Source of the DNA: an uncultured Acidimicrobiales bacterium | GTDB taxonomy: Bacteria > Actinomycetota > Acidimicrobiia > Acidimicrobiales > UBA10347 | Assembly (NCBI GenBank): GCA_937991435.1 | Contig: CALKPY010000094.1 | Span: 15,262-79,261, forward strand | Reading direction: 5' to 3' | Length of the DNA: 64,000 bases | In this document: piece by piece, positions 2,225 through 62,251 of the stretch | Position numbering within the stretch: the first letter of the stretch is position 1 | Layout of the letters: each line of letters opens with the position of its first letter | Translations under genes and position numbers: made by a program | The notes under the pieces: generated by a model | Told to the model about the DNA's origin: nothing | Databases searched by the model: none | What the model saw: the letters and a program-made list of their open reading frames with translations, nothing else

Positions 2225-3121
2225 GTGAAGTCTCGAGCAATTCTCGGCGTGGTCGTGCTTGTCGCGATGTTGATTGGTGGCAACTTCACTGCACTCAAAT
2301 TCGCGCTCGATCACACGACCCCATTGCTCCTCGCTGGTCTTCGAACCATCATCGGAGGCACCTTCCTGCTCGCTCTCGCCAAGTTCCGTGGCGAGACGTT
2401 CCCGACAGATCGACGTGACTTACTGAACATTTTCATCGTCTCGTTTTCAATCACCACCGTTTCGAGCGCGCTCCTGGTGTTAGGAGTCAGTCGGGTACCA
2501 GCCGGTGTCGCCTCGCTGATCGCAAGCACGATGCCGCTGTTTACGGTCGTGTTGGCCTTTGTCATGCTGCGGGCCTCGATTGGGCGCATGGGTCTAGCTG
2601 GCCTCGTCGTCGGCTTCGCTGGCACGGTCGCGCTCGTTTCGCCATCGCTATCGGGAAGCGCAGCCACCATCGGCATCGTTTCATTGCTGGCATCGGCGTT
2701 TGCATGGGCATTTGGCAACGTTTGGATGAAATTTCGGGACTTGAGCGCTGTCAGCCCGATCATGCTCGTCGGCACGCAGCTGTACATGTCTGCGGCTGTT
2801 CTGATTCCGTTCGCGCTCATCGTCGAGGGCGCTGCCGCCACCGATTGGTCGATCGGCCTGTTCGCTCCCCTGCTCTACGCCGCGATCCCGGCCAACGCCA
2901 TCACGTTCGCGCTACTCGCCACGGTCGTTCGTCGCGCAACCCCAACCCAAGCAGCGTCAAGCGCATATCTCATACCCGTATTCGGAGTGTTCTTTGGCTG
3001 GCTCATCCGTGACGAGCGCCTCGGGCTCGCCGAGGTAATCGGCGGACTTCTAGTCGTGGCCGGGGTCTACCTTCTCGTGACATCAACCGCGCGCCAGGCA
3101 GCCGCGACCGCTTCGAGCTGA
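2225..3121 (+). CDS. EamA/DMT family transporter
   Basis: Polytopic membrane protein with duplicated EamA-like halves (LIGGNFTALKFAL..., ...AFGNVWMKF...). The ORF-track start at 1889 overlaps the VanZ gene, so I moved it to GTG 2225 (VKSRAILGVVVLVAML). Confidence 0.75.
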   Translation: MKSRAILGVVVLVAMLIGGNFTALKFALDHTTPLLLAGLRTIIGGTFLLALAKFRGETFPTDRRDLLNIFIVSFSITTVSSALLVLGVSRVPAGVASLIASTMPLFTVVLAFVMLRASIGRMGLAGLVVGFAGTVALVSPSLSGSAATIGIVSLLASAFAWAFGNVWMKFRDLSAVSPIMLVGTQLYMSAAVLIPFALIVEGAAATDWSIGLFAPLLYAAIPANAITFALLATVVRRATPTQAASSAYLIPVFGVFFGWLIRDERLGLAEVIGGLLVVAGVYLLVTSTARQAAATASS

Positions 3122-3141
3122 TCGGCTGGCAGGCTGGCCAC

Positions 3142-6400: not shown

Positions 6401-7849
6401 ATGCACGAATATGGTGGTAAGGCATTGAAATACACAACGAAGACGGCAATAGCAGTCGTTTCCCTGATTGCGCTTGTGGCAAGCCTCGTTACCGACGAAC
6501 GTCAGGCAAGCGCACAGTCCGACCTGAGCAACGCCGGCGAAAGCATCGAAGGATTCAGTTGGATCGGCTCAGCGAGCAAGAGCCCGTTTACCGCGGTGCC
6601 TGACGACGCGGTCGTCGACCTCGACCTGCCGCCCGAGAACACCATCGTGAATGGTACGGGCGCGCAGATCCAGAACTTTCCGTGGATGGTGCAACTCGAA
6701 AACGGCGACGGAAGCCACCTTTGCACCGGAACACTTTTGCGGACCAATCTGGTCATCTCGGCTCGCCACTGTTTCGAGAACGACGACCTCTCAGCATTCC
6801 GGTCTGACTGGCGCACCATCAATGTGCGCTACGGCACAACTGGCCAGTCAGGCGGCTCGACTCGCAATGTCGCCGATGTCGCATACTCGGGCAGATCGGG
6901 AGCCAACAATGAGTTCGCTCTAGACCTTGTGATCGTCGAGCTCGACAAGCACGTTTCGCTCGGACCAAATGTTGGGCTCGTGGAGCTCGCGAGCGCAGCA
7001 GAATCAGCGCAGGCGCAGAACGGCTTGGTCCTCGGATGGGGCGCCATCGGCTTCGACGGTCCGCTGGCGCAACAGCTTCGAAAGGCCACCATCGCTCTTC
7101 GTTCCGATGCGATGTGCGCAAATATCCTTGGCTCGAAGCAAGGCCCTCCGTGGCGGCTACCGCCGTATCTAGGCGGGCGCATGATCTGCGGCGGCGGTTC
7201 GGGCAGCGATACATGTAGCGGCGACAGCGGTGGCCCGTTGATGGTGCGTGGTACCGACGGACAATGGAAGCAGGCCGGGGTGACTTCGTTTGGATACAGG
7301 TGCAATGCTGGCCTGCCCGGCGTGTACGTAGAACTCAATGCGTACCGCTCGGCACTCGCCAATTTCGTCGGCCGAGGATTTTGCAATGGCCAACGATCGA
7401 CCGTTGACCTGAGCCTGGGCGATGTGCCCACCGCAGGTTCTGACCGAATCGTCGGCACCCCGTACAAAGACATCGTCTACGCGCAGGGCGGCGACGACAT
7501 CGTTTGCGGATTGGGCGGCAACGACGTCGTACATGGCGGGCCAGGCAATGACCGGTTACACGGCAACAGGGGCTGGGACGGCTTGTTCGGGGGCCCGGGC
7601 GACGACCAGATATGGGGTGGACTCGGCAACGACAACATTGCGGGCGGACTAGGCAACGACAAGCTCTTCGGCGGCGAACATGACGACGTCTTGAACGGTT
7701 ACGAAGGAACCGACGAGATTTATGGAGGGCCGGGCAACGACCGCATCTCTGGTGGACCCGGTCTTGGCGACCGTTGTTACGGCCTTGACGGCTACGACAC
7801 GGGTCTCGGCGGGTGCGAAATCCGCGGCGGACTCGAAGCCTTCGAGTAG
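6401..7849 (+). CDS. secreted trypsin-like (S1) serine protease with a C-terminal RTX calcium-binding repeat block
   Basis: Signal peptide (TAIAVVSLIALVASLV...ASAQS). S1 motifs IVNG...LCTGTLL..LVISARHC and DTCSGDSGGPL. The C-terminal part has about 9 GGxGxD nonapeptides. Confidence 0.85.
   Translation: MHEYGGKALKYTTKTAIAVVSLIALVASLVTDERQASAQSDLSNAGESIEGFSWIGSASKSPFTAVPDDAVVDLDLPPENTIVNGTGAQIQNFPWMVQLENGDGSHLCTGTLLRTNLVISARHCFENDDLSAFRSDWRTINVRYGTTGQSGGSTRNVADVAYSGRSGANNEFALDLVIVELDKHVSLGPNVGLVELASAAESAQAQNGLVLGWGAIGFDGPLAQQLRKATIALRSDAMCANILGSKQGPPWRLPPYLGGRMICGGGSGSDTCSGDSGGPLMVRGTDGQWKQAGVTSFGYRCNAGLPGVYVELNAYRSALANFVGRGFCNGQRSTVDLSLGDVPTAGSDRIVGTPYKDIVYAQGGDDIVCGLGGNDVVHGGPGNDRLHGNRGWDGLFGGPGDDQIWGGLGNDNIAGGLGNDKLFGGEHDDVLNGYEGTDEIYGGPGNDRISGGPGLGDRCYGLDGYDTGLGGCEIRGGLEAFE
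7436..7800 (+). repeat. coding 27-nt periodic repeats (RTX GGxGxDxUx units)
   Basis: GGDDIVCGLGGNDVVHGGPGNDRLHGNRGWDGLFGGPGDDQIWGGLGNDNIAGGLGNDKLFGGEHDDVLNGYEGTDEIYGGPGNDRISGGPG. Confidence 0.8.
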
Positions 7850-23453: not shown

Positions 23454-23531
23454 GCCTCCGTGGCGCAGTCTGGTTAGCGCAGTGGACTTTTAATCCATTG
23501 GTCGTGGGTTCGAATCCCACCGGGGGTACCA
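23454..23531 (+). tRNA. tRNA-Lys (anticodon UUU), CCA encoded
   Basis: Hand-folded cloverleaf: acceptor GCCTCCG/CGGGGGT, D arm GCGC-AGTCTGGTTA-GCGC, anticodon arm GTGGA-CTTTTAA-TCCAT, variable loop TGGTC, T arm GTGGG-TTCGAAT-CCCAC, discriminator A, then CCA. Confidence 0.9.
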
Positions 23532-23548
23532 AGCGACGTTCTTTCAAA

Positions 23549-23580
23549 CCTCCGACAGCAGCGTCGGGGGTTTGTTCGTA
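23549..23580 (+). terminator. hairpin plus T-tract after tRNA-Lys
   Basis: CCTCCGAC-AGCAGC-GTCGGGGG followed by TTTGTTCGTA. Confidence 0.5.
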
Positions 23581-23581
23581 T

Positions 23582-24530
23582 TGGCGGACGACCATTTCCC
23601 AGAGGCGGTCGACATCTTCGAGGGTGAGGCCTTCTTCTCGCCGGCCGACCTCGGCGGTGGCCCTGTCGGCCGTGAGACTCGACGACTGAACGGCGTCTCG
23701 CAAGAAGTCGGGGTCGAGCATCGTCTCAAACAGCTCCGTGAACGAGAGTGCAGTGATGCCGTCCTCCCCTATCTCGACTCGTTTCAAGATGGCCTGGTTC
23801 ATCTGACGTCGAGTCTTGTCGTTGGCGGTCTGGCAAGCGGCTCCGACTTGGGTTGTGAATTCGAGAGCTGCTTCCAGATTGGCGACAACCAGAGCATGAC
23901 CATGATGGGCGCTGGAGAGTTGACGGTCAATGGCTTCAAGTTCGGCGCTGATGCGCTTCTGCTCACTCTTCATGAGTTCGAGCGGTACGGCATCGGCATA
24001 GTGGGCTTGTAGCAGCTTCTCTTGCTGCATGACCAAACGTGCCGGCGTGAGCTTTGGGCTTTGCCCTGGCTCTTGGCTTCGTCTCCGACGGCATCGAGTT
24101 CATCGAGTTCATCGAGGATGTAGCTGCGGAGTCCGCCAACGAGGGCGTCTGAAAGTCGGAACCTGTCGTACCACTGTTCGATCCACCATTCGACGAAATC
24201 TTGGCCGACTGATCGAAGACGGCAATCAGTTCGTTTCTGGTGCCTGCCCACGCACATGAAGTAGAAGTAGTCGTAGATCTCACCCGATCGGGAGCGGCTG
24301 TGGGACAGGCGGGACCCGCATTCGCCGCAGAAGATGGTGCCCTTGAGGTAGTGCTGCTGTTTGCGAAGAAGTTCTTGAACCTGGTTCCAAGTATTTAGGT
24401 CGACGAGCGGTTCGTGGTTGCCGTCATAGACGATGCCCTGGCTGAAGCCTGCTTCTTTTCTTCTGGCTCTGATGTTCTTTTCGAACTGGGCGGCTTCTTT
24501 GCAGATGGGCTGGGTCATCAACAAGTCATG
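23582..24530 (-). pseudogene. large serine recombinase remnant (zinc-ribbon plus coiled-coil parts only; frameshifted and 5'-truncated)
   Basis: One frame (within ORF 23970..25034) gives ...GIVYDGNHEPLVDLNTWNQVQELLRK...LKGTIFCGECGSRLSHSRSRSGEIYDYFYFMCVGRHQKRTDC, which is the recombinase and Zn-ribbon region. A second frame (ORF 23401..24036) continues QEKLLQAHYADAVPLELMKSEQKRISAELEAIDRQL, which is the coiled coil. The frames switch near 24036-24060. No resolvase catalytic domain lies upstream. Confidence 0.65.
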
Positions 24531-24590
24531 ATCGACTTGGAGGTGACGCCGAAACAACGGGCTATAGATAAACGGTCTACTATCTCTTCG

Positions 24591-25574
24591 ATGCATGAGA
24601 AGACAGAGCAGAGACCACTCCCACGGCTGCTTGTGACCCTCGCAGCACTCATGCTCATCGCAGCGGCTTGTGGATCGAGCGGGACAGCCGAGAGCGACAC
24701 GACAAGCAAAGCGAGCACGGCGACCGACGACGAACCTGGCATCTCGTTGGGCGCCAACAAAGACCCTGCGGGAGACGGCGACACCGAGACGGAAGCCGAG
24801 ACCGAGCCTGTGGCGACCACGGCACCGATCGCAACGGCTGTGCCAAACGAAGTACCAGAACCGACAGCGACACCAGTGCCGACCCCGACACCAGAGCCTC
24901 TGAACGTGCTCACCTTGGCTGATGCCAAGGCGGGTGTGTCTGGAGTGAACTGGACGATCCACTTCACAGGCACCGAACACTGGGAACCGTTCGGTCAACC
25001 GACAGGTGAGGAAGCCGACCGACTTGACATTCATCCGTGGATGCTTGACAGCGTCCGTGACCTGTTGGTGGTGACCGGATCGCCACAGGACGAATGGGTG
25101 GAAGTGCTGTTGCCGTGGCTTGAGCCGAACGGCCAGACCGGATGGGTGCGGACCGCAAGCGGCGAACTCTTCTCAACCGACGTGGTGTTGGAGATTCAGC
25201 GGTCGGCTGGCGTACTCAGTGTCTGGAGCGATGGTGAAATCATCTGGAGTGCCGATGATCTGAGTGAGCCGGAACGACGCTTGGCACATGTTCCACTGGT
25301 CATTGGGTCAATCGCGGGCATGGCAGAACAAGGCACCCGGGAATTCTTCAGTCCCTCAATTCTTGGGCTATCGGTCACCCTGGTAGATGTCGAAGGCATC
25401 GATTTCCAGCCAGTCCTTGGCATTCGAGGCCTTAACGACGGCGCGAGCGTTGAGGATGCACGAGCGAGCTTGCCACCGGACGCCAAGGGCTCTTCGATCT
25501 GGATTCGTAGCTCGGAGCTGGAGGAGCTTGCCGAGCTGCTTCCGGCGGGGGCTCGGGTGGAGCTTGTGGAGTAG
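24591..25574 (+). CDS. lipoprotein with a C-terminal YkuD (L,D-transpeptidase)-like domain lacking the catalytic His and Cys
   Basis: Lipobox LIAAAC at residues ~20-25, then a T/E/P-rich linker. The C-terminal part VVLEIQRSAGVLSVWSDGEII...LGLSV...GIRGLND...GSSIWIRSSELEELAELLPAGARVELV aligns by eye with the YkuD pattern ...GIHGTN...SHGCIRM...V..G..V. Start re-set to ATG 24591. Confidence 0.55.
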   Translation: MHEKTEQRPLPRLLVTLAALMLIAAACGSSGTAESDTTSKASTATDDEPGISLGANKDPAGDGDTETEAETEPVATTAPIATAVPNEVPEPTATPVPTPTPEPLNVLTLADAKAGVSGVNWTIHFTGTEHWEPFGQPTGEEADRLDIHPWMLDSVRDLLVVTGSPQDEWVEVLLPWLEPNGQTGWVRTASGELFSTDVVLEIQRSAGVLSVWSDGEIIWSADDLSEPERRLAHVPLVIGSIAGMAEQGTREFFSPSILGLSVTLVDVEGIDFQPVLGIRGLNDGASVEDARASLPPDAKGSSIWIRSSELEELAELLPAGARVELVE

Positions 25575-26568: not shown

Positions 26569-27666
26569 ATGAACCTGTCCGAAGCAATCGACGCGTGGGC
26601 TGCGAAACACCGCTCGGGGCTTTCGGCCGCGACGAGGCGCGACATCTTGGGGATCGGGCTAGCCGCATCCGATTCTGAGCACGGGTCTGTAGCAATCGCC
26701 GATCTGGATATCGACGCCATCGACTCCTTTGCCACCGAGGCGGCTGGCGATTCAAATTTGTCTGAGATGGCGATACGCGAATTTGTTGGCGTCGTGAAAA
26801 CGTGGGCAACCAAGAACACGAAAAAGAAGAAGACTCGAACGGCACAAACCAAACGTTCTGCTGGTCCTTTCGGAGCGCTCGTTGACGCATCAACTACCCG
26901 CTCACCCGCTGCCGATGAGCCAGTCTCAGCCGACGACGAAGACAAGCGTTCGTCGAGTGGCTCTGACGCTGACCGGAATCAGGCCGATGATCACGACGAC
27001 TCGTTTGAAGGCAAATCAGACAACACCGAAAAAGATGTCGATCTTGTCGACGGCGATGAAGATGAGGGCACAGGCGTCGAAACCAAGCCAAGCGACCTGG
27101 ATCGAGACGACGAACCGGGCGACCACGCGCCGGCCGAGAGCGAAGACGACGACGCACCCGCCGATCATGACGACGACGCACCCGCCGATCATGACGACGA
27201 AGACGACGACGAAGAAGAAGACGCGCCCGAAGAAGAAGACGCACCAGACGAAGACACACCGGGCGAAGACGACGTCGAAGCCGCACCGGATGAAGACGAA
27301 GACTTAGACGCTCGCGACGACGACGCGCCGGCCGATGATGAGCACGGCGACGACGAAGAACAAGACGACGACGAAGACGATGCGCCGGCCGATGATGACG
27401 ACGAAGAAGACCACGACGCTGAGCTGCCCAATGAGCAGCAGGCAGCATTTATGTCCGCGATCGCGACCGACAAGCGCGAGCAGAAGCCGTCGACATTCGC
27501 GAGGTCAAGTGCACCTTCAACGCACGTAAAACCACGACAGGGTGCGTTCACGGCCGAAACAAAGCCGGTAGAGAAGTCCAGTGGCCCCGACCTGCTCACG
27601 GCATTTTACTTTTCAGTGGCCGCCATCTGCTTCGTGGTGATGATCGTCATGTGGTTTACACGCTGA
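26569..27666 (+). CDS. hyper-acidic, tail-anchored membrane protein of unknown function
   Basis: 365 aa: a ~90-aa folded-looking N-terminus, a ~200-aa D/E-rich low-complexity region (DDDAPADHDDDAPADHDDEDDDEEEDAPEEEDAPDED...), and a single C-terminal TM (LLTAFYFSVAAICFVVMIVMWF). Confidence 0.6.
   Translation: MNLSEAIDAWAAKHRSGLSAATRRDILGIGLAASDSEHGSVAIADLDIDAIDSFATEAAGDSNLSEMAIREFVGVVKTWATKNTKKKKTRTAQTKRSAGPFGALVDASTTRSPAADEPVSADDEDKRSSSGSDADRNQADDHDDSFEGKSDNTEKDVDLVDGDEDEGTGVETKPSDLDRDDEPGDHAPAESEDDDAPADHDDDAPADHDDEDDDEEEDAPEEEDAPDEDTPGEDDVEAAPDEDEDLDARDDDAPADDEHGDDEEQDDDEDDAPADDDDEEDHDAELPNEQQAAFMSAIATDKREQKPSTFARSSAPSTHVKPRQGAFTAETKPVEKSSGPDLLTAFYFSVAAICFVVMIVMWFTR
27145..27192. repeat. 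perfect 24-nt tandem duplication inside the acidic-protein gene
   Basis: GACGACGACGCACCCGCCGATCAT occurs twice in tandem (27145-27168 and 27169-27192), encoding DDDAPADH twice. Confidence 0.9.
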
Positions 27667-33587: not shown

Positions 33588-34235
33588 ATGACACATACCC
33601 CCCGGCGCTGCAAACCGAACAACAGTCGCATTCGCCCAGTATTGGCGGTGTTGTTAACGTTGCTGATCGTCGCCTCGAGCTGTGCCAGCGATGAACCCGT
33701 AGCCATAGCGACCAACGATGGCGGCGTGCTCGTCAAACCGCCAGATGTTCTCGACGGCGATGCCCCGGTTGAAGCCACCGACGCCGACGCGGTTGACGAC
33801 GCCGACGCTGCACCTGCACCTGACGTTGTGGATTTCACCTGGTTCGACGGAACGCCCGGGTCGACCGCAGATTTCGCCGGTGAACCAACGGTCGTTAACT
33901 TCTGGGCCAGTAACTGCCCTCCGTGCGTGGCCGAAATGCCTGAGTTCGAGTCGGTTTATCAGGCGATCGGCGATCGCGTCTCATTCGTGGGCGTGAACGT
34001 GGCTGACATTCGCACCGAAGCCGACCGGCTCGCTGACCAAACGGGCGTCAGTTACCCGCTTGTCGAAGATCCAGACTCCGCAGTCTTTCGTGCGTATAGG
34101 GGCTTTGTCATGCCCACGACGGTGTTCTTGAACGAAACCGGGCAGCCAGTGTTCACCTGGTCTGGAGTTCTCACGGGCGAGGAACTCCGCATTCTCATCG
34201 ATCGCCACATAGCCCCTGGGAGTCTCGATGTTTGA
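33588..34235 (+). CDS. TlpA/ResA-family thiol-disulfide oxidoreductase lipoprotein
   Basis: Lipobox IVASSC and a thioredoxin fold with VVNFWASNCPPCVAEMPEF. Confidence 0.85.
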   Translation: MTHTPRRCKPNNSRIRPVLAVLLTLLIVASSCASDEPVAIATNDGGVLVKPPDVLDGDAPVEATDADAVDDADAAPAPDVVDFTWFDGTPGSTADFAGEPTVVNFWASNCPPCVAEMPEFESVYQAIGDRVSFVGVNVADIRTEADRLADQTGVSYPLVEDPDSAVFRAYRGFVMPTTVFLNETGQPVFTWSGVLTGEELRILIDRHIAPGSLDV

Positions 34236-35352
34236 CGCCGATCTTGCGTTTCCGTTCACACTTGGCCTGGTGGCGGCGTTTAATCCATGTGGGTTCGCGA
34301 TGTTGCCCGTCTATGTGTCGTTCTTTCTCGGGACAAACAGCGCCGATGACACCAGCTCGACCCGCAACGTGCTGCGAGCTCTCAAAGTTGGGTTTGCGCT
34401 CACAGCCGGCTTCATCGCCGTGTTTGGCGCTGTCGGACTGATGACCACCAGCCTGCTCAAAGGCGTCCCCATCACCCGCTACACGCCGTACGTGACCTTT
34501 GGCTTGGGATTCTTGTTGATTCCGCTTGGCCTGGCCATGCTCCGAGGCTTCGAACCAAAGATCGCGACCCCCCGACTTGAAAAGGGTGGCGACTCAGGCG
34601 AGATGAAGTCGATGTTCTTGTTTGGTGTGAGCTACGCAGTTGTATCTCTCGGCTGCACACTGCCTCTGTTCATCGCCAACGTCACCAATGTCTTTACCGC
34701 CGATGGCTATTTCGATGGCGTGCTCGTCTTCATTGCTTACGCCGTGGGAATGGGCGCGGTGATCATGACCCTCACCATTGGTTTGGCGATGGCTCGCACC
34801 TCGATTGCCACGAACATGCGCAAGGTATTGCCCTGGGTCAACCGCATCTCGGGAGTACTCCTTGCACTCTCTGGTGCGTACCTGATCGTGTACGGCTGGT
34901 GGGAAATTCAGATCTTCCGCGGCAACATCACGTCGAATCGTCTGGTGACGTTCTTTGAGAACATGCAGACCGAGGTCACCATCTGGATTCAGGAAACCGG
35001 CGCCACCAGACTCGGCGTTGGCTTGCTGTTGATCATCGGCGCTGCACTTGTTCGAGCACTCTGGGGCAATCTCGACAAGCCCACCAAGGCCATCGCTGGC
35101 ACCGGACTCATCGTCGCGTGGGGGTTGGCGGAGTTCGCTTGGCAAGGCGCCAACTTGTTCATCTTGCCGGTGATCCGCACCATTGGTGACCTTCCGGAAC
35201 GACTCGGCAATTGGTTCACCGATCCGATTCGTTGGGCTGTTCTCGGCGAGGTTCTCATAATCGCGGCCATTGCCTGGACCGTCTGGTTCCGGGTCCGCCG
35301 TCAGCGCGACACGCCACCGGTTGGGGTTGGCGGAGACCTCAGCCGCGCGTGA
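34228..35352 (+). CDS. CcdA/DsbD-family cytochrome c biogenesis thiol transporter (with extra C-terminal TM helices)
   Basis: AAFNPCGFAMLP and VVSLGCTLPLF are the two conserved Cys-containing helices. It overlaps the tlpA-like gene by 8 nt. Confidence 0.85.
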   Translation: MFDADLAFPFTLGLVAAFNPCGFAMLPVYVSFFLGTNSADDTSSTRNVLRALKVGFALTAGFIAVFGAVGLMTTSLLKGVPITRYTPYVTFGLGFLLIPLGLAMLRGFEPKIATPRLEKGGDSGEMKSMFLFGVSYAVVSLGCTLPLFIANVTNVFTADGYFDGVLVFIAYAVGMGAVIMTLTIGLAMARTSIATNMRKVLPWVNRISGVLLALSGAYLIVYGWWEIQIFRGNITSNRLVTFFENMQTEVTIWIQETGATRLGVGLLLIIGAALVRALWGNLDKPTKAIAGTGLIVAWGLAEFAWQGANLFILPVIRTIGDLPERLGNWFTDPIRWAVLGEVLIIAAIAWTVWFRVRRQRDTPPVGVGGDLSRA

Positions 35353-41651: not shown

Positions 41652-43148
41652 TCAGTCCTTTAGAGATTCAGGGTTCGAAGTAGCCCACAGGTGATGAGTG
41701 GCGTAACTGCGCCAAGGCGAGATCAGGCGCAACTCCTCAGCGCGAAGACCGAGTGCGTTTGCTGACCGAGCAGCGACCAGGTCGCCGCCGAGCCAGATGT
41801 CTGGATCGGCCATGACCCGCATGAGCACGTAGTCCGCCGTCCACGGCCCAATACCGGAGACCGTGAGCAACTCGGAGCGCACCGAGTTTCGGTCACCAGA
41901 CGGGCTCAGTTCGTTGGTGCGACCAGCCCACTGACGGGAGATCGCGTGAAGAGTGTGTATTCCCCGCGTCGTCAGTCCAAGGTCGCCAAGGTCGGTCTCA
42001 GCCAGCACCTCGGGTGACGGAAACGGAACGAGCTCTTCGGTGCCGGCGCCCGCGTGAGCTCGAACTCTCGCCACGATTCGACCCGCGAGTGTGCGGGCGG
42101 CCGCCACGCTTCGTTGTTGTCCGAGCACGGCGAACGCCAGCGTCGCGAATCCGTCGGTCGAACCTGGAGATCGCAACCCTGGTCGCGACTTGACGAGCGG
42201 GCGAAGCGGTTTCAGAGCACCGAGCGCAGCGTCGATCGCAGTCGGATCGCAATCAAGATCGAGCATGGCCCGACATTGGCGCACGGCTTCGCCGACATCG
42301 CGCACCTCGTCAAGACGCAACCTGCAGTCGACGAAGCCTTCATCAAAACGAAGTTCGACCGTGCCGCCGCCATGGGGCAAACGCAACGCGGTCCTCAACG
42401 TCTCACCATCGACCTGGCTTACTCCGGCCACACACCGGTGAGCAGCCCAACCAAGCAAGTAGGCACTTGCGATCGGAAGCCGATGGGCCAGGCGCAGCCG
42501 AAGCTCGCCGCTCGAAACCGCGATGCCGGATCGGCTCTTGGCACGCAGCTCCGTCGGTGTCTCGGCAAACACAGCCTTGACGGTGTCGTTGAATTGGCGT
42601 TGGCTCTGAAAGCCAGATGCAAAGGTGACATCAGTGAATGTCATGTCGGTAGTTTCAATCAAGGTGCGCGCCGTCTGTGCCCGGTGGGCTCGGGCCACAG
42701 CGATCGGTGGAGCTCCAACCTCGTCGATCATGACCCGTCGCAGGTGGCGCGGCGTGACGCCGAGCGAGCCGGCCAGCTCGTTGACCGAAACAGAATCGAG
42801 GCACCCGTCGGTGATCATGCGCATAGCTCGGCCAACAAGGTCTTGGCGTAGGTTCCACTGGGGGGAACCTGGTGAAGCGTCAGGGCGACAGCGCTTACAG
42901 GCTCGCAAACCTTGCCTTTGCGCAGATGCCGCGGTGACGTAGAAGTCGACGTTTCGACGAAGCGGCTGTACCGGCGTGGGACAACTCGGGCGGCAATAGA
43001 TCCCTGTAGTGCGAACTCCGACAATGAACATGCCGTCAAAGCGTGGATCGCGGCTCTCGACGGCACGCCAACGGTCGTCATCAGAGAATCCGAGTGCTCC
43101 CCGGTGGGTTGCGTCGAAATCCGTTTCGCTGCGCGCCCTGGCTTCCAC
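41652..43148 (-). CDS. alkA: fused Ada regulatory domain / AraC HTH / DNA-3-methyladenine glycosylase II (AlkA)
   Basis: Ada Zn domain (YCRPSCP...CKRCRP), an AraC-type HTH, an AlkA_N region and an HhH-GPD (...VSGIGPWTADYVLMR). The architecture and the adjacent ogt match the mycobacterial ada-alkA/ogt pair. Confidence 0.9.
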   Translation of the reverse strand: MEARARSETDFDATHRGALGFSDDDRWRAVESRDPRFDGMFIVGVRTTGIYCRPSCPTPVQPLRRNVDFYVTAASAQRQGLRACKRCRPDASPGSPQWNLRQDLVGRAMRMITDGCLDSVSVNELAGSLGVTPRHLRRVMIDEVGAPPIAVARAHRAQTARTLIETTDMTFTDVTFASGFQSQRQFNDTVKAVFAETPTELRAKSRSGIAVSSGELRLRLAHRLPIASAYLLGWAAHRCVAGVSQVDGETLRTALRLPHGGGTVELRFDEGFVDCRLRLDEVRDVGEAVRQCRAMLDLDCDPTAIDAALGALKPLRPLVKSRPGLRSPGSTDGFATLAFAVLGQQRSVAAARTLAGRIVARVRAHAGAGTEELVPFPSPEVLAETDLGDLGLTTRGIHTLHAISRQWAGRTNELSPSGDRNSVRSELLTVSGIGPWTADYVLMRVMADPDIWLGGDLVAARSANALGLRAEELRLISPWRSYATHHLWATSNPESLKD

Positions 43149-53583: not shown

Positions 53584-53927
53584 CGGCTGTTGCGTTTGTG
53601 CTCGTTGCGGTTGTCGCCACGTTGCTCCGTGTGTTCGCAACGAGTGGGCAACCTGCCACTGTGCTTCCGTGGCGAACCTTGGCAGTCAACGTGACTGGGT
53701 CGGCGCTACTCGGACTGTGGGTCGGCGCAGGATGGTCAAACCAAATTGTGATCACCGTCGCTGGGCTCGGGTCGTTCACCACGTTTTCAACCGTTGCCGC
53801 CGAGTCAGCAGCGCTGCTCGATAATCGCGCTCGTTCCACCGCTGTCGCCTACCTTGGACTCACCCTGATCCTCGGGGTGGCAGCCGCACTGCTTGGCCTC
53901 GAAGTTGGAGACGTAATCGATGCATGA
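53580..53927 (+). CDS. crcB: fluoride channel CrcB/FluC (copy 2)
   Basis: NVTGSALLGL...GLGSFTTFSTV motifs. ATGA overlap with copy 1. Confidence 0.8.
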   Translation: MTAVAFVLVAVVATLLRVFATSGQPATVLPWRTLAVNVTGSALLGLWVGAGWSNQIVITVAGLGSFTTFSTVAAESAALLDNRARSTAVAYLGLTLILGVAAALLGLEVGDVIDA

Positions 53928-54570
53928 CCTTGCGACCGAACCCGTCGTCGTTGAAATGTTCAGCGACTTCCTTTGACCTTGGTGCCATGTCGGCACCGTG
54001 CGTGTCGACGAACTCAAGCGCCGAATGGGCGATCAGATCATTGTTGAATACAAGAGCTACCTGTTGCGAACCGAACCAAAGACCCAGTCACTCGAGAAGT
54101 TCGTGACGTACACGAACTCGTGGCAACGTCCCGCTGAACTCGAACCCAAAGCAATGTTCACTACGCCATGGCGGTCAGGCGCTAGTCCGCCGACCAGCTC
54201 GCTTCCCGCCCAGGTGGCGTGGAAAGCAGCGGCCACTTTTGGGCCAGCAGCGCAGGACAGCTTCCACCACGCTCTGCTCGATTCTTATTTCGTGCAAAAT
54301 CGCAATATCAGCGACTTCGACGAGTTGTTTGCGATCGCCGGAGAGTGTGGTCTCGACCCCGACAGGTTCAAGACCGTGATCGATGAGCAACATGTCGCTC
54401 TAGCCGAGATCGTCTGGAGCGAGCACAACGATGCGGTCACACGCGGGGTGACAGCCGTGCCAACAATGGTGCTCGGCGGGTCCTTCGGCGTGCCCGGCGC
54501 GCAAGATGTAGACACCTATGAGCGACTCATCGCTCGGCTTGTTGAGCGCCGCTCACACGGCACGGTCTAA
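53920..54570 (+). CDS. DsbA/FrnE-family thiol:disulfide oxidoreductase with an in-frame TGA at the first Cys of CxxC (candidate selenoprotein; otherwise a pseudogene)
   Basis: The frame is open from ATG 53920 (which overlaps the crcB-2 stop, with GGAG 9 nt upstream): MHDLATEPVVVEMFSDFL-TGA(53974-53976)-PWCHVGTVRVDELKRR..., continuous with track ORF 53998..54570. The downstream GVTAVPTMVLGG motif is typical of the family. Confidence 0.6.
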
Positions 54571-55897: not shown

Positions 55898-56920
55898 TCA
55901 GCTGGCAGACGCCAAGCTGGCTGCAGCACTGACGGCGATATCCAGATCCTTTGACCACTCGCCGATCAACTGGACCGACCGTGTCGGGATTTCGTGATTG
56001 TAGGTCGAGGAGTCGCTCACATTGTGCAACGACGCCGTCAAGGCGTCGAGGCCGACGAGTTCGACTCGGACCCCCATGGCCTTGATGTGGGTAAGCAACG
56101 GCACAAGGTCAGATTCAACTGCGTCGGTTGCTGATACAGCGAAGGTGAGGCGGCAGCCGTCTAGTCGAGAGGAGCGCAACGTGCCATGAAGGGCCGGAAG
56201 CACGCCGGCGAGAAATTCGACGTGCGGAATCGCGATGCGAAGATTGATCTCGTCGTTGTCGACACGCAACAGTTCGTCGGCTGCAGCGTGGAGCAACGTG
56301 GCCATCACGGTCGAAGCCATTCCCAGGGCCACGATCTTGTCGGCAATAGGCCAAAGCTCGATGCTTTGACCGCTTGGAAGAGTCCACCATGGCGAGGTCT
56401 CAAGAAGCGGGTTCGGGCCGTCTTCGAACATGCGGTATTGGGCGGCGACTTCAGATGGTCGCATATCGCGCAGCGACGGCACCGTCGCCGAGGCAGCGGT
56501 GGCGGCGCGAGCTTCGCGACCCCAACACACCACGAACAGACATTCGTCTGAATGATCATCGAGAACAGGAGCCAGCAGCACTTCGTTTTCGTCGGACGTG
56601 GCGAACACGGCACGTCGATGCGAGCGTGCAACTTGCGCACAGACCCGTTCGAATTCACGGCGATTTTCGCCAGCCAGCAAGCTACGCACGGTGTCGCTCA
56701 CGAACAGCGAAGCGAGTTGCTCGTAGCCAACAATGGCGCCGTTGTGATCGACCCGAACAACCAGCGAGTTCGAGTCGAGCAGGCGTCGCATCGGCACAAG
56801 GTCGGCCACACGAAGTGCTGCATCTCCCGACTGTGCCGTGTTGTTGTTTTGTTGCGGTAGGCCCACAGATATCTGTCGGCTCCAGACGCCTCTACATAAG
56901 CGAAATACGAACCATGTCAT
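55898..56920 (-). CDS. hypothetical protein; the C-terminal half weakly resembles a degenerate EAL domain
   Basis: 340-aa ORF. ...INLRIAIPHVEFL....LTFAVSATDAV...LLTHIKAMGVRVELVGLDAL follows the EAL strand pattern (lsvNls / lEitE / GialDDFG), but the catalytic residues are replaced. The start is uncertain. Confidence 0.4.
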   Translation of the reverse strand: MTWFVFRLCRGVWSRQISVGLPQQNNNTAQSGDAALRVADLVPMRRLLDSNSLVVRVDHNGAIVGYEQLASLFVSDTVRSLLAGENRREFERVCAQVARSHRRAVFATSDENEVLLAPVLDDHSDECLFVVCWGREARAATAASATVPSLRDMRPSEVAAQYRMFEDGPNPLLETSPWWTLPSGQSIELWPIADKIVALGMASTVMATLLHAAADELLRVDNDEINLRIAIPHVEFLAGVLPALHGTLRSSRLDGCRLTFAVSATDAVESDLVPLLTHIKAMGVRVELVGLDALTASLHNVSDSSTYNHEIPTRSVQLIGEWSKDLDIAVSAAASLASAS

Positions 56921-56968: not shown

Positions 56969-57904
56969 TCAACCGGACCGCGGCGATTCGGTGCCAGCTT
57001 CACCCTCGGGAATCGGCTCACCGGCTTCGGCGAAGGCATGTTGAACCTGGTCGAACGTCAATTCTTCAGGAAGGCGTTTTGACCGATTCGAGGCCGCGGC
57101 ACTTGGCCTGAGTGAGTCCTGCCGGCTGACCCACAGGAAGAACAGCAAGGCAATGACTGACCAGATGAAGATACCGCCGCCCAGCTTCATGATCAGGCCC
57201 GCGGCTTGTTGGTCGTCGACCGCACTCACACCACCCAATCGGACCTCATGGTCATACACCCGGTAGAGCGGCGACTCGGCAAATGTCAAAAAGCCGCCAG
57301 GAACCGTTGGTAGTACCGAGTTCAGGAACATGAAGATCATTTGCCCAGGGAACGACGCTCGCAGCTCAGGAAGCGGGCTGACGACCGGCATCCACATAAG
57401 CAATGCTGTCGAGAACACGATGAGGTGTACGAAATAGTGAAAAACGCCATTCTCAACCGACGAGTTGACGATTGGGGCCAAGTGAGTCATCGCCACGACC
57501 ACGTTGAACAGCAACGCAGCTGGCACCGGCCTCGTCAGACGTCGCACCCATTGACCGCTGGATCCGTCGGCGCTGACCACAAGACGAGCTAACCATTCGG
57601 GCGTCGCCAACAAGAACAGCGGCGGGATCAGCAAGGTGATTGTTAAGTGTTGAGCCATGTGCACGCTGTACAGATACTCCTCGGCAATGTCGTGCACCGG
57701 CCAGTCGCTCGCGAGCCACAACAAAGCCACAGCACCAACGAAACACAAGCGTTGTCGGCTGGTGACGATTGGCTGGCCTTTCGCCACTGCCTTGGGGCCT
57801 AACACGCGCGTCACCCACCAGCCGAAACCGGTGACGACAGCGATGATCAGCCACACCTCGGGGTGAGTCTGGAAACGCCAAATATCGGTGTTCGCGGCGA
57901 TCAA
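56969..57904 (-). CDS. ctaG: cytochrome c oxidase assembly factor CtaG (Caa3_CtaG family)
   Basis: Polytopic membrane protein with YSVHMAQHLTITLLIPPLFLLATP and a later ...VHLIVFSTALLMW. Confidence 0.8.
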   Translation of the reverse strand: MIAANTDIWRFQTHPEVWLIIAVVTGFGWWVTRVLGPKAVAKGQPIVTSRQRLCFVGAVALLWLASDWPVHDIAEEYLYSVHMAQHLTITLLIPPLFLLATPEWLARLVVSADGSSGQWVRRLTRPVPAALLFNVVVAMTHLAPIVNSSVENGVFHYFVHLIVFSTALLMWMPVVSPLPELRASFPGQMIFMFLNSVLPTVPGGFLTFAESPLYRVYDHEVRLGGVSAVDDQQAAGLIMKLGGGIFIWSVIALLFFLWVSRQDSLRPSAAASNRSKRLPEELTFDQVQHAFAEAGEPIPEGEAGTESPRSG

Positions 57905-58001
57905 CGTCGACTCCGCAAAGAGCCCGCACCGCAGCGGCTATGCAGAGCTCTCACAGGACTCGGGCTCACCGCAATCAACACCTGACTCGAACGTCGAAGA
58001 A

Positions 58002-58340
58002 TCAGACGAATCCGAACCGGTTGTACGCCAAGAACATGATCACATAGACAATGCACGCAAGGACTACTCCTGCGATAAACACTCGACGGAACCACACCGT
58101 GTCGTATTTGAGGTGCATGAAATAGGCACCGACCATCACGAACTTGATGATCATGAGTACCGACAGCACCACATACATCGCCCACTCGGGTGCATTGTGG
58201 ACCGACTCGAAATAGGTGCCAACTTCAATGAGCGTGAAGAACGCAAGAATCAGAGCGATCTTGACATAAAAGGCATCGGTCGGATGATCGTGATCGTCGT
58301 GCGCGTCGGAATCGACATGTTCTACAGCAAGATCGGTCAC
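58002..58340 (-). CDS. cytochrome c oxidase subunit IV (prokaryotic COX4 family)
   Basis: 3 TM (FYVKIALILAFFTLIEVGTYF...). GTG 58340 forms a GTGA overlap with the ctaE stop. Confidence 0.65.
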   Translation of the reverse strand: MTDLAVEHVDSDAHDDHDHPTDAFYVKIALILAFFTLIEVGTYFESVHNAPEWAMYVVLSVLMIIKFVMVGAYFMHLKYDTVWFRRVFIAGVVLACIVYVIMFLAYNRFGFV

Positions 58341-58984
58341 AGCACACTCTCCGGTTGTGGGAACAGGTACACGACAGTGAAGATGAGAATCCACACGATG
58401 TCCACGAAGTGCCAGTAGAGGCCAACGATTTCGACCGTTTCAGCCTTGTCGGAGTTGAGGCGCCCCTGCTTGTGCATGATGTAGGTCACCAGCAACATGA
58501 TGATGCCGATCGTTACGTGCACACCGTGGAATCCGGTCAAGGTGTAGAACGACGATCCAAAGATGTTGGTTGTGTAGCCAAGACCTTCTTCGTAAAAGAC
58601 CGTGAATTCGTAAATCTGACCGGCGATAAAGGTCGCACCGAGGGCTGCGGTCGTGAGTGTCCAGACACGGAACCGGTGGTAGTCACCTCGTGAGATCGAA
58701 GACAGCGCCAGCACCATCGTCAGCGAACTCAGCAGCAGCACGAATGAAGACACCGAAGTGAACGGAATGTCGAAGACGTCTGCCGGTCCGAGTTCTCCGT
58801 CGGGCAAGCGCTCTTTGTAGAGCATGTATGTCGAAATCAGCGCTCCGAACAGCAGACACTCGCTGCCCAGGAACACCCACATCATCAGCTTGTTGTTCGA
58901 AATACCGGTACTCGTGCCGTGACCATGGGAGCCATCGTGCGAGTCACCGTGTTCAGTGGCAGTTGCCACAGCTGCTTCAGCCAA
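58337..58984 (-). CDS. ctaE: cytochrome c oxidase subunit III
   Basis: NKLMMWVFLGSECLLFGALI...FHGVHVTIG...LYWHFVDIVWILIF. TTG 58984 is preceded by AAGGAG with a 6-nt spacer. Starts at 59023 and 59101 are in frame but overlap ctaD more deeply. Confidence 0.85.
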   Translation of the reverse strand: MAEAAVATATEHGDSHDGSHGHGTSTGISNNKLMMWVFLGSECLLFGALISTYMLYKERLPDGELGPADVFDIPFTSVSSFVLLLSSLTMVLALSSISRGDYHRFRVWTLTTAALGATFIAGQIYEFTVFYEEGLGYTTNIFGSSFYTLTGFHGVHVTIGIIMLLVTYIMHKQGRLNSDKAETVEIVGLYWHFVDIVWILIFTVVYLFPQPESVL

Positions 58985-60980
58985 CGGAAGCTCCTTGGTC
59001 GGTAGCGGCGACGCCGTCTGCATCGTGGTGGTCGGCGTCGTGATCGTCGTGGTGGCCGTGGGCAGCTTCGGGGTCATCGGCTGGTTCGAGTGCCCAACCA
59101 ACGAATGAAAGCACGAAGAGAATGCCTGCCGGTACGAGCAACCACAGCGAGAAGATGATCGCGTAACCGATCAGTGGAAGCGAGAACGACAATACGAGCG
59201 GCCAATATGACGGCGACGGTAGATGCACATTGGTGTTACTGCCGTCGTCTGCGATGTCTTCAGGGTGCGCAATACGCACGATCTTGCCGTCGTCGTCGGT
59301 GCCCCATTTGCGGTGCCACCAGTCGTCTTGGAACTCGACCGTAGGGTCGGAATCGAAGTTGTGGACTGGGGTTGGCGATGCTGTCGACCATTCGAGGCTG
59401 CGGGCATCCCATGGATCGGGGCCGACATCGACAGGATTCTTCTTCGCAGCTCGTGCGGAGATGACGATGTTGAACAAGAAGATGAGCACACCAATGCCAA
59501 TGACGAAGCTACCCAAGGAGACGATTCGATTCCACTGGGTGAAACCGTCGGCTTCGGCGTAGCTGTGGTGACGACGAGCCATGCCCTGCAAACCAAGAAT
59601 ATGCATTGGCCCAAAGGTCATGTTGAACCCGATCAGCATGAGCCAGAAGTTGATCTTGCCCCACTTCTCATTGAGCTTGTGACCAAACGCTTTTGGCCAC
59701 CAAAAGTAGAAGCCGCCGAACATGCCGAGCAGTGCGCCACCGAAAATCACATAGTGAAAGTGCGCCACGATGTAGTAAGTGTCGGTCTGCTGTGTGTCGC
59801 TTGGCGCAACGGCGTGAGTCACGCCCGACAGGCCACCGATGGTGAACATGGCGATCACGCCGACCGAGAACAGCATCGCTGTGGTGAATCGCAGTCGACC
59901 GCCCCACATCGTTGCGAGCCAGTTCAGGATCTTCACACCGGTTGGTACGGCAATGAACATCGTTGACATGGAGAAGGCTGCAACGGAGATGGGACCGAGG
60001 CCGCTCACGAACATGTGGTGAGCCCACACGCCCCAGCCCATGAAGCCAATGGCTATGCCTGAGCCGACCATAAACGGATAGCCAAAGATTGGTTTGCGGC
60101 TGAAGGTCGGGATGATTTCCGAGATGATGCCGAAGGCCGGCAGGATCAAGATGTAGACCTCAGGGTGACCAAAGATCCAGAAGAGATGCTGCCACAACAG
60201 TGGGCTTCCGCCCTCGGCGACGTTGAAGAAGTTGGCGTCGAAGCTGCGGTCAAAGGTGAGCAGGAACAATGCAATCGTGATCACCGGAACCGCGAAGAGC
60301 AGCAGGAACTGCACAACCAGCATCATCCAGGTGAAGATCGGCATCTTGAGCAGCGTCATGCCCGGCGCTCGCATGTTGAGCACGGTCACGATCAGGTTGA
60401 TTGCCGAGACGAGCGAGGCAATACCAGCGATTTGCAGGCCAATAGCGTAGAAGTCCATGCCGTTGCCCGGCGCAAATGTTGCCGAGGTGTTAGGCGCGTA
60501 GGCAAACCAACCGCCGTCGGGCGCACCGCCAAGGAACCAGGAGGTGTTCAAGAACAGCGCACCGGCCAGCCAGCACCAAAAGCTGAATGCATTGAGACGA
60601 GGAAACGCAACATCTCGAGCGCCAACTTGTAGTGGCAACAGATAGTTCGCGAACGCCGCAGCCATCGGCATAATCACGAGGAACACCATGGTCACGCCGT
60701 GCATCGTGAAAACTTGGTTGTAGACGCTCTCTGACAGGAAGTTGTTGCCAGGCTGCGACAGCTGAATGCGAATCAGCAGCGCTTCGAGGCCGCCGACCAA
60801 GAAGAAGAACAGCGAACCAACGCCGTACATGATGCCGATTTTTTTGTGATCGACGGTCGTGAACCAGCTGGCCCAGCCGACATCGCTCTGCGGACGGGTC
60901 AGCGCCCCGAGCGGACGGGTGTTTGTTTTGGTGACTTCGCCTGACTCAAGAGCCAGGGGGCGGTCTTCGGTGATTGCCAT
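58977..60980 (-). CDS. ctaD: cytochrome c oxidase subunit I with a C-terminal two-helix extension
   Basis: Canonical heme-copper motifs (GHPEVYILILPAFG, WAHHMF, HFHYV) and the LEW....P.P.HNF tail. An extra ~110 aa follows, including SPSYWPLVLSF... Confidence 0.95.
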   Translation of the reverse strand: MAITEDRPLALESGEVTKTNTRPLGALTRPQSDVGWASWFTTVDHKKIGIMYGVGSLFFFLVGGLEALLIRIQLSQPGNNFLSESVYNQVFTMHGVTMVFLVIMPMAAAFANYLLPLQVGARDVAFPRLNAFSFWCWLAGALFLNTSWFLGGAPDGGWFAYAPNTSATFAPGNGMDFYAIGLQIAGIASLVSAINLIVTVLNMRAPGMTLLKMPIFTWMMLVVQFLLLFAVPVITIALFLLTFDRSFDANFFNVAEGGSPLLWQHLFWIFGHPEVYILILPAFGIISEIIPTFSRKPIFGYPFMVGSGIAIGFMGWGVWAHHMFVSGLGPISVAAFSMSTMFIAVPTGVKILNWLATMWGGRLRFTTAMLFSVGVIAMFTIGGLSGVTHAVAPSDTQQTDTYYIVAHFHYVIFGGALLGMFGGFYFWWPKAFGHKLNEKWGKINFWLMLIGFNMTFGPMHILGLQGMARRHHSYAEADGFTQWNRIVSLGSFVIGIGVLIFLFNIVISARAAKKNPVDVGPDPWDARSLEWSTASPTPVHNFDSDPTVEFQDDWWHRKWGTDDDGKIVRIAHPEDIADDGSNTNVHLPSPSYWPLVLSFSLPLIGYAIIFSLWLLVPAGILFVLSFVGWALEPADDPEAAHGHHDDHDADHHDADGVAATDQGASVG

Positions 60981-61000
60981 GATTTCGTACTCGGTGCTTC

Positions 61001-62251
61001 TCAGTCGAGGGTCATCAGGAAGGCGACAAGATTGTCGACATCGTCATCGGACAATGCTTCGAACGGGGTCATTCCCCGCTGTCCGGTGGGGCTGTCCCAC
61101 GCATTTGCTTTTTGTTCCGGCGCATTGATTATCCATGCTTCGAGCTGGCCGCGATTGAGGTCGCCAGCGCTGGCAAGATCGAGATAGTCGACCTCGTCAA
61201 CGTTTTCGTAGAGCTCAAAGATGCCGCCTGCGAAACTCGAGCGAGATGCGATGTGCGTCAGGTTCGGAGCCGCTCCGGAGACCTGCGTCTGCTTGTCGAT
61301 CAGGCGGTTGGCGCCGTCATAGAGTTCGACACTGTCGACCGCGTCGGTGTCGTTCAGTGAAGTCAGACCATTGATCACATGACAGGAGGCGCATTGTGCG
61401 CTGAATACTTCCCAGCCTGCAGCAGCGTCGGTTCCTTCAGCAGGGGCCGTGGCATCGGCCATCTGGTTAGCGGCCCAGGTCTTCCAGTCGGCAAGTTCGA
61501 GACCGACTGCCCACTTTTCCATATAGGCATGAGACAGGCCGCAGAACTCGGTGCATTCGCCGGGGAACCGACCAACCGAGCCGGCTTCGATGGTCCACGG
61601 GCTTGATCGGCCCGGCACGGCGTCGCGCTTGCCGTTAAGAGCTGGAACCCAGAACGAGTGAATGACGTCGCGGCTGGTGACTTCGAGCAGAATCTCTTCG
61701 CCAACTGGAAGCACAAGTTCACCGGCGGTGACAATGTCGGCAACGCCGTCGTCGTCGAGGTGGTACTGAAATTCCCACCACCATTGTTGGCCCACAACAA
61801 CGACTTTTTCGATCTGCTGATCGTCTGATGCCGAAACATCGTCGAGATTGAACAAGGTGCCGAGCGTGAAGAATCCGACGATTGCCATGATGACAGTTGG
61901 AACGATGGTCCAGCCGATTTCAAGGCGAGTATTGCCGTGGATCTGCGCCGGGAATTCTTCGTCTGGGTAGACGTCATCTTCGTCATCGGGAGCGTCGACC
62001 CGAAAGCGTCGGGCCATGTAGATGACCGCGCCTTGCACGAGCACGAACACGATGATGGCCACGATGCCGACACCGATGAAGAGGTTGTTGATCTCGTTCG
62101 CGATTGGGCTCTCAGGAGCCATCGTGTCAAGTGGGGTGTCGGCACAGGCCGACAACAACGCCACGGTTGCAAGGGCAACGAGCGCTCGGAGCTGGCGTGA
62201 CCGGCTCGGCATCGATCGCACCGATTGCACAGGAAGTTCTGATTCGGTCAT
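61001..62251 (-). CDS. ctaC: cytochrome c oxidase subunit II fused to a C-terminal cytochrome c domain (caa3-type)
   Basis: Lipoprotein signal (LLSAC). CuA site VIHSFWVP...CTEFCGLSHAYM. C-terminal heme-c motif CASCH. Confidence 0.9.
   Translation of the reverse strand: MTESELPVQSVRSMPSRSRQLRALVALATVALLSACADTPLDTMAPESPIANEINNLFIGVGIVAIIVFVLVQGAVIYMARRFRVDAPDDEDDVYPDEEFPAQIHGNTRLEIGWTIVPTVIMAIVGFFTLGTLFNLDDVSASDDQQIEKVVVVGQQWWWEFQYHLDDDGVADIVTAGELVLPVGEEILLEVTSRDVIHSFWVPALNGKRDAVPGRSSPWTIEAGSVGRFPGECTEFCGLSHAYMEKWAVGLELADWKTWAANQMADATAPAEGTDAAAGWEVFSAQCASCHVINGLTSLNDTDAVDSVELYDGANRLIDKQTQVSGAAPNLTHIASRSSFAGGIFELYENVDEVDYLDLASAGDLNRGQLEAWIINAPEQKANAWDSPTGQRGMTPFEALSDDDVDNLVAFLMTLD

Follow-up and report, generated by a model that had tools for sequence, protein, structure and literature searches.

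A predicted selenocysteine codon and a conserved SECIS-type hairpin in a DsbA/FrnE-like gene of an uncultured Acidimicrobiales bacterium

The window analysed here, a stretch of 64,000 nucleotides from an uncultured Acidimicrobiales bacterium (contig CALKPY010000094.1), carries on its forward strand a gene whose reading frame is interrupted by one TGA codon at the position of the nucleophilic cysteine of a CPWC motif. Comparison with related genomes makes it very probable that this gene, at 53920-54570, specifies a 216-residue cytoplasmic DsbA/FrnE-like thiol-disulfide oxidoreductase with the redox centre Sec19-Pro-Trp-Cys22, in which the UGA codes for selenocysteine (Sec). A conserved hairpin at 53989-54009 is the candidate selenocysteine insertion sequence (SECIS) element, and begins 8 nt downstream of the start of the hairpin that had been proposed for this role in an earlier reading of the window, hereafter the sequence-only reading. 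The hairpin would bind SelB, selenium would be incorporated at the UGA, and the product would be located in the cytoplasm and act as a reductase or isomerase.

The frame opens with ATG 53920-53922, which has no competitor as start codon in the interval from the preceding stop to the conserved beta-1 segment, and runs across the stop codon of the upstream gene (TGA, 53925-53927), which is identified as CRCB (PF02537) in the near-identical locus L083. A GGAG at 53907-53910, 9 nt before the ATG on the same strand, resembles a Shine-Dalgarno sequence and would be expected to act as one. From the ATG to the TAA at 54568-54570 the frame is broken once only, by the TGA at 53974-53976; its translation reads MHDLATEPVVVEMFSDFL up to that codon and PWCHVGTVRVDEL directly after it. 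Read through, the gene comprises 216 sense codons, the Sec-UGA among them, followed by the TAA stop. Eighteen residues lie ahead of Sec, and by inspection they form no hydrophobic leader. The automatic list of open reading frames (ORFs) holds only a 190-aa ORF that starts at GTG 53998 and ends at 54570. The sequence-only reading had described the GGAG, the start at 53920, the overlap with crcB, the single TGA and the 190-aa ORF in the same terms.

Conservation of the TGA was assessed in the DNA of 80 species-representative genomes at 41-73% identity, which with the window make up a set of 81 sequences. The 80 genomes are metagenome-assembled genomes (MAGs) of Acidimicrobiales/Acidimicrobiia, save for a few bins labelled otherwise. 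The homologous codon is TGA in all 80, and TAA, TAG, TGC or TGT in none, so that the Sec form is nearly fixed in this Acidimicrobiales clade; such conservation goes far beyond what chance would produce. The peptide encoded 5' of the TGA is conserved as P-V-x-L-t-V-W-S-D-F-L, and across the 11 upstream codons the entropy is 0.62, 0.55 and 1.39 at codon positions 1, 2 and 3; its maximum at the third position indicates purifying selection on a translated upstream segment. Furthermore, a start codon is present between the preceding stop and the TGA in 81/81 sequences, and 190-201 residues follow the TGA without a second stop. Two of the bins with the typical TGA form, L022 and L007, are labelled 'uncultured Gammaproteobacteria bacterium' and 'Actinomyces sp.', labels that likely reflect mis-binning or mislabelling. 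The crcB/pdxH/serS synteny is found in only about 10-13 of the 80 loci, those of the closest relatives; the operon junction is therefore local, and a functional link to crcB was rejected.

The same pattern is seen at the protein level. The database matches listed include about 120 homologues that are 38-72% identical to the query; about 110 of these share the same N-terminal cut-off point, with lengths of 175-194 aa and query coverage of 80-88%. Seven matches are full-length and possess CPWC (P0049, P0051, P0065, P0091, P0105, P0118 and P0120). At the DNA level, a Cys codon occupies the position of the TGA in six homologues, one of which, P0049 in locus L081, is syntenic: its context, pdxH-crcB-crcB-dsbA...serS, is that of the window, which makes P0049 an orthologue with a Sec/Cys exchange. 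In L081, where the gene spans 3001-3642, TGT stands in place of TGA and the outer three pairs of the conserved hairpin are lost. When the Cys orthologue served as query across the whole library, the broader family proved to be mostly of the Cys type, and about one sixth of the best 150 clusters (50% identity) begin exactly at the post-SECIS Val/Arg, and are thereby identified as truncated Sec forms.

These data bear on two ways in which the TGA might carry no meaning. An error of sequencing or assembly at 53976 can be practically discounted: in L083, an independent Logan assembly (ERR9287622) with 7 mismatches to the window in 7367 nt, the segment 53920-54570 is identical, TGA included, and the codon is kept in 80 genomes that stem from numerous projects and were sequenced by various technologies. 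Nor is it at all plausible that a TGC or TGT mutated to TGA and left either a dead gene or a 190-aa truncated DsbA, translated from GTG 53998 and lacking the active site, which was the alternative offered by the sequence-only reading. Gene callers do annotate precisely that truncated ORF, and the Sec machinery is not seen in the window; yet a nonsense mutation would have to account for an identical TGA, never TAA or TAG, in 80/80 species as divergent as these, for purifying selection on the peptide upstream of it, for the lack of any other lesion, and for a covarying hairpin on its 3' side. The nonsense alternative is effectively refuted by the first three of these. The expectations attached to the Sec interpretation in the sequence-only reading were, by comparison, borne out: orthologues carry TGA or, in six forms of which one is syntenic, a Cys codon; the segment 53920-53973 is conserved as protein, judging from its third-position-biased variation and its coverage by the DSBA domain; the frame downstream shows no decay; and the TGA base itself recurs in the independent assembly.

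The interrupted codon falls at the catalytic position of a recognisable fold. With Cys substituted for the stop, residues 10-204 match positions 1-190 of the 191 in the Pfam DSBA profile (PF01323; E = 6e-23), at 82 bits against a gathering cut-off of 25.6. As the match begins at residue 10, the domain takes in the 18 codons 5' of the TGA; the whole DSBA domain is recovered solely when the UGA is read through. The nearest solved structures by sequence are FrnE of D. radiodurans (5cnw, E = 6e-15) and SCO1869 of S. coelicolor (3gl5, E = 5e-12). In the alignment, ...DIWSDIACPWCYIG of FrnE corresponds to ...EMFSDFL[U]PWCHVG, which places U-P-W-C, directly after beta-1, opposite the C-P-W-C of FrnE and of the Cys homologues. 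The assignment of the TGA to the nucleophilic residue of a CxxC-type motif, and its probable Sec-encoding function, are thus upheld by the 80/80 conservation, the Sec/Cys pairing, the conserved upstream segment and the undecayed frame.

FrnE (PDB 5cnw/5cp1) and SCO1869 (3gl5) share with the window protein the beta-1 strand and the motif (D/E)(I/M)(W/F)SD..CPWC(Y/H)(I/V)G, and all three lack a signal peptide, which implies a cytoplasmic DsbA fold. However, both have Cys where the window protein has the Sec-UGA. FrnE possesses a C-terminal tail or extension with extra Cys residues. It is 260 aa long, compared with 216 aa for the window protein, which has no Cys beyond about residue 145, that is, in its last ~70 residues. 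On account of its shorter length and the lack of C-terminal Cys residues, an assignment to FrnE sensu stricto was rejected; a classical periplasmic DsbA was likewise set aside, there being no leader peptide on inspection and UPWC in place of CPHC. No NCBIfam model attains its cut-off for the window protein family.

A bacterial selenocysteine codon would be expected to be followed by a SECIS element, and such an element is suggested by the alignment of the 81 sequences. The 5' arm at 53989-53996 (GUCGGCAC) pairs with the 3' arm at 54002-54009 (GUGUCGAC) around the loop CGUGC at 53997-54001. The hairpin begins 12 nt past the UGA, or 11 nt if the optional ninth pair U53988·G54010 is counted. In the alignment, 94% of the cells of this hairpin are paired, compared with 28-44% in controls with the partners shifted by 1-3 columns, and cells in which both partners have changed number 22, a count matched in 0/500 shuffles. 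RNAalifold independently predicted the same hairpin. The folding energy of the region as a whole is unremarkable relative to shuffles (z = -0.6).

Covariation is seen at two pairs. Pair 21-31 is GC in 60 sequences and CG in 14, while pair 22-30 is AU in 67, GC in 7, UA in 1 and GU in 4; the G·U states at the covarying pairs look like intermediates. Counted on a neighbour-joining tree built from the remaining protein, there were at least three independent Watson-Crick switches at pair 21-31 and at least five at pair 22-30, for a total of at least eight compensatory events. In this way a Gly codon's wobble base is coupled with the initial base of a Val/Leu codon, and the initial base of a Thr/Ala/Ser codon with the wobble base of an Arg codon. 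Constraints on the protein do not account for this coupling.

The loop has the consensus N-G-U-N-C, in which G is present in at least 90% of the sequences and U is invariant. According to the published consensus for bacterial SECIS (bSECIS) elements, the loop is of 3-9 nt, the stem of 4-16 bp and the distance from UGA to loop 16-37 nt, with a minimum free energy (MFE) of -7.5 kcal/mol or lower (PMC13188914, Fig. 2A), and a G lies within the first two loop positions, typically as N1-G-[G/U]-N-N2 (PMC13188914). With 8 bp, the loop CGUGC, a UGA-loop spacing of 20 nt and -10.7 kcal/mol, the hairpin of the window agrees with the bSECIS consensus on all four points. The same is true of 58/81 sequences, and 19 more fall short on energy alone when the 21-mer is scored by itself. 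The Cys forms serve as a control: whereas the hairpin of the Sec forms averages -10.6 +/- 1.9 kcal/mol, values range from -4.5 to +5.8 kcal/mol in the six Cys forms, which retain just 2-6 of the 8 pairs, even where the peptide encoded is identical (YVGTVRL or YVGAVRL).

The paradigm for such elements is found in E. coli fdhF, where the minimal SECIS is a 17-nt stem-loop 11 nt after the UGA, with G-U in the loop and a bulged U in the stem. The element of the window resembles it in being a hairpin inside the coding sequence, in its distance of 11-12 nt from the UGA, and in the G-U of its small apical loop. On the other hand, the two have no sequence similarity, and the window hairpin shows no obvious bulged U in its 5' arm, but has instead G·U (C·U in some sequences) at the fifth stem position. 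Taken together, the hairpin at 53989-54009 is best interpreted as a SECIS, to which SelB would bind.

The sequence-only reading had assigned the SECIS to another hairpin, GGUGCC-AUGUC-GGCACC, formed by 53981-53986 and 53992-53997. In the window this is a perfect 6-bp stem of about -10 kcal/mol and is part of the MFE fold. Nevertheless, it is very improbable that it is the functional SECIS here, or that it works jointly with the conserved hairpin. Its central pair is broken in 63/80 distinct sequences, compensatory changes number 0, and its proportion of paired cells (77%) equals the shuffled expectation; it is confined to the window and a few close relatives. In none of the 81 sequences does this hairpin agree with the bSECIS consensus on all four points; its spacing is 10 nt, and the first two loop positions hold no G. 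Moreover, it starts 4 nt past the UGA, and, to judge from known ribosome footprints, would be within the ribosome at the time of decoding. The earlier assignment was therefore not sustained, and the element is placed at 53989-54009 instead. The two hairpins overlap and are mutually exclusive, the 5' arm of the SECIS being sequestered when the upstream hairpin forms. There is a slim chance that in the window and its closest relatives, L001 and L003, the upstream hairpin is a conformational switch peculiar to the lineage, by which the balance between Sec insertion and termination is set; it could then respond to cues such as translation rate or selenium supply, and be more than an accident of codon choice.

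Several observations weigh against a Sec codon served by the conserved hairpin. First, protein constraints (Val/Leu, Thr/Ala) also act on some of the codon positions that covary. Second, the 21-nt hairpin alone misses the cut-off of -7.5 kcal/mol in 22/81 sequences. Third, in the window the two hairpins are nearly isoenergetic, at -12.2 kcal/mol for the conserved one and -11.6 kcal/mol for that of the sequence-only reading, and thermodynamics alone therefore cannot choose between them. Fourth, Rfam scans at gathering and permissive thresholds gave no match to a SECIS family and nothing beyond chance snoRNA matches (E > 2), a result tempered by the poor coverage of bacterial SECIS elements in Rfam. 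Finally, selA, selB, selD and tRNA-Sec were not found in the 64-kb window or in about 0.5 Mb of related flanks. ARAGORN runs on the window and on 60 loci detected no tRNA-Sec, the 20 largest ORFs of the window gave no Pfam match to SelA, SelB or SelD, and tblastn with approximate E. coli SelA/SelB/SelD queries produced no match in the window and all loci, about 0.6 Mb in total.

That the source genome possesses the Sec machinery is suggested by what published surveys list for cultivated bacteria of this order. SelD, SelA and SelB are all recorded for Ilumatobacter coccineus, I. nonamiensis and Ca. Microthrix parvicella, with 15, 10 and 7 selenoproteins, respectively (PMC5029168, Tables S1, S2), whereas Acidimicrobium ferrooxidans lacks SelD, SelA and SelB (PMC5029168). 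Three of the loci with the TGA form, L039, L049 and L073, are from Microthrix MAGs. Within the same class, selA, selB, selC and selD are present in 84/84 complete Actinomarina genomes (2026 preprint). The window was scanned twice for further selenoprotein genes, once for TGA-interrupted frames and once for a TGA with a SECIS-like hairpin; a redox motif in a plausible frame was found in the DsbA-like gene only, and at 60% GC the GC content of third codon positions is too weak a coding signal to decide.

A rival proposal, favoured by the lack of Sec machinery genes in the sequence covered, is that the UGA is read through without Sec, by a near-cognate or suppressor tRNA (for Cys, Trp or Gly) or by local reassignment, with the hairpin acting as a read-through stimulator, an ability that hairpins downstream of stop codons are known to have. 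This is very unlikely, however. The UGA pairs with the catalytic Cys of homologues, which is the classical signature of Sec; the spacing of the hairpin and its G-U loop fit the consensus for SelB-type elements; SelA, SelB and SelD, along with 7-15 selenoproteins, are recorded for cultivated representatives of the order; and the family is already catalogued as a selenoprotein family. In addition, UGA is the main ordinary stop codon of the window. TGA ends 35/61 of its ORFs, full-length COX1 and COX2 among them, and is therefore an ordinary stop in this organism that is recoded at one codon only; a genome-wide reassignment of UGA was ruled out on these grounds.

Under the Sec interpretation, translation would start at ATG 53920, coupled to that of the upstream crcB. 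With the UGA at 53974-53976 in the ribosomal A site, the hairpin only 4 nt away would be melted inside the mRNA channel, while the conserved hairpin, 11-12 nt past the UGA, would sit at the mRNA entrance, positions that are deduced from known ribosome footprints. The NGUNC loop would there recruit SelB·GTP·Sec-tRNA(Sec), such that Sec is inserted in place of termination, and the product would alternate between a selenol/thiol and a selenenylsulfide.

Both the mechanism and the protein family were known beforehand. DsbA-like UxxC selenoproteins (COG2761/PF01323) were first reported from the Sargasso Sea in 2005, with 9 sequences (Zhang, Fomenko and Gladyshev, PMC1088965), and later from Anaeromyxobacter, Desulfovibrio and Desulfotomaculum (Zhang et al. 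2006, PMC1794560); a subsequent survey by Peng et al. (2016, PMC5029168) put their number at 45 genes from 41 organisms, and a 2026 review names the group "DsbA-like protein form 1" (PMC13188914). This family resembles the window gene in its PF01323 domain, in UxxC with Sec for the first Cys, and in a bSECIS directly downstream with G in a small apical loop; Cys homologues of it are widespread. The genes of the window clade are carried in public records as truncated proteins of 175-194 aa. The window gene thus belongs to a known selenoprotein family, in which it is new or at any rate unannotated, and uses a known bacterial mechanism.

The truncation is a matter of annotation. P0010, P0269-P0286 and most of the other homologue matches are truncated entries (NCBI, JGI/IMG, ENA, Tara) under the names 'DsbA family protein' or 'hypothetical protein', among them records of 177-186 aa; their starts are miscalled either at a Met further downstream or at the Val codon of the SECIS loop. 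Such misannotation, which leaves out the active site, affects at least 80 Acidimicrobiales genomes at species level and more than 100 public protein clusters, and the practical value of the present analysis lies in correcting that annotation. Furthermore, the alignment of 81 SECIS sequences, with at least eight compensatory events and matched Cys controls, could seed a covariance model for actinobacterial SECIS elements, which escape detection by Rfam. The analysis also brings to light a selenoprotein close to fixation in an abundant order of marine, freshwater and soil bacteria that are for the most part aerobic. The features of the locus are collected in Table 1.

Table 1. Features at the predicted selenoprotein locus, with positions in the window
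Feature	Positions	Strand	Basis
Shine-Dalgarno-like GGAG	53907..53910	+	Sequence reading; putative function
Predicted selenoprotein gene, DsbA/FrnE-like thioredoxin fold, U-P-W-C	53920..54570	+	Pfam DSBA and FrnE/SCO1869 matches
Start codon ATG	53920..53922	+	Overlaps crcB stop
In-frame UGA, predicted Sec residue 19, nucleophilic-Cys position of CPWC	53974..53976	+	TGA in 80/80 and the window; Cys codon in 6 homologues
TGC, resolving Cys of U-P-W-C	53983..53985	+	Cys invariant in 81/81 sequences
Hairpin of the sequence-only reading, GGUGCC-AUGUC-GGCACC	53981..53997	+	Present in the window sequence, not conserved
Conserved SECIS-type hairpin	53989..54009	+	Pairing, covariation, RNAalifold, bSECIS consensus, missing from Cys forms
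GTG, conserved Val codon within the SECIS loop, miscalled ORF start	53998..54000	+	Many database entries begin there

Elsewhere in the window, a second thiol-redox module is found at 33588-35352, where a CcdA/DsbD-type transmembrane thiol-disulfide transporter (PF02683, 34228-35352) is slightly overlapped by the preceding 215-aa ORF. An aa3-type cytochrome c oxidase cluster occupies 56969-62251 on the minus strand, and comprises CtaG (assigned by synteny with L083), COX1 with a fused subunit-IV-like tail (58977-60980), and, at 61001-62251, COX2 bearing a cytochrome c domain. The presence of this cluster indicates that the organism is aerobic, a point of interest since selenoproteomes are often called richer in anaerobes.

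For the ORFs at 26569-27666 (365 aa) and 55898-56920 (340 aa), Pfam gave no match at E <= 1e-5; the latter is flanked by serS and ctaG and recurs in L083. At 23454-25034, tRNA-Lys(UUU) (23454-23531) is followed by a minus-strand ORF of 354 aa (23970-25034) with a recombinase zinc-ribbon domain (PF13408, E = 1e-8), and the region may be a mobile element integrated at the tRNA gene. In a 482-aa protein encoded at 6401-7849, a trypsin-like serine protease domain is joined to four RTX calcium-binding repeats, a pairing that is unusual in an actinobacterium. Finally, 41652-43148 encodes a 498-aa Ada/AlkA-type fusion of Ada zinc-binding, AraC-type helix-turn-helix and AlkA N-terminal domains, whose predicted function is that of an adaptive-response DNA repair regulator or glycosylase.

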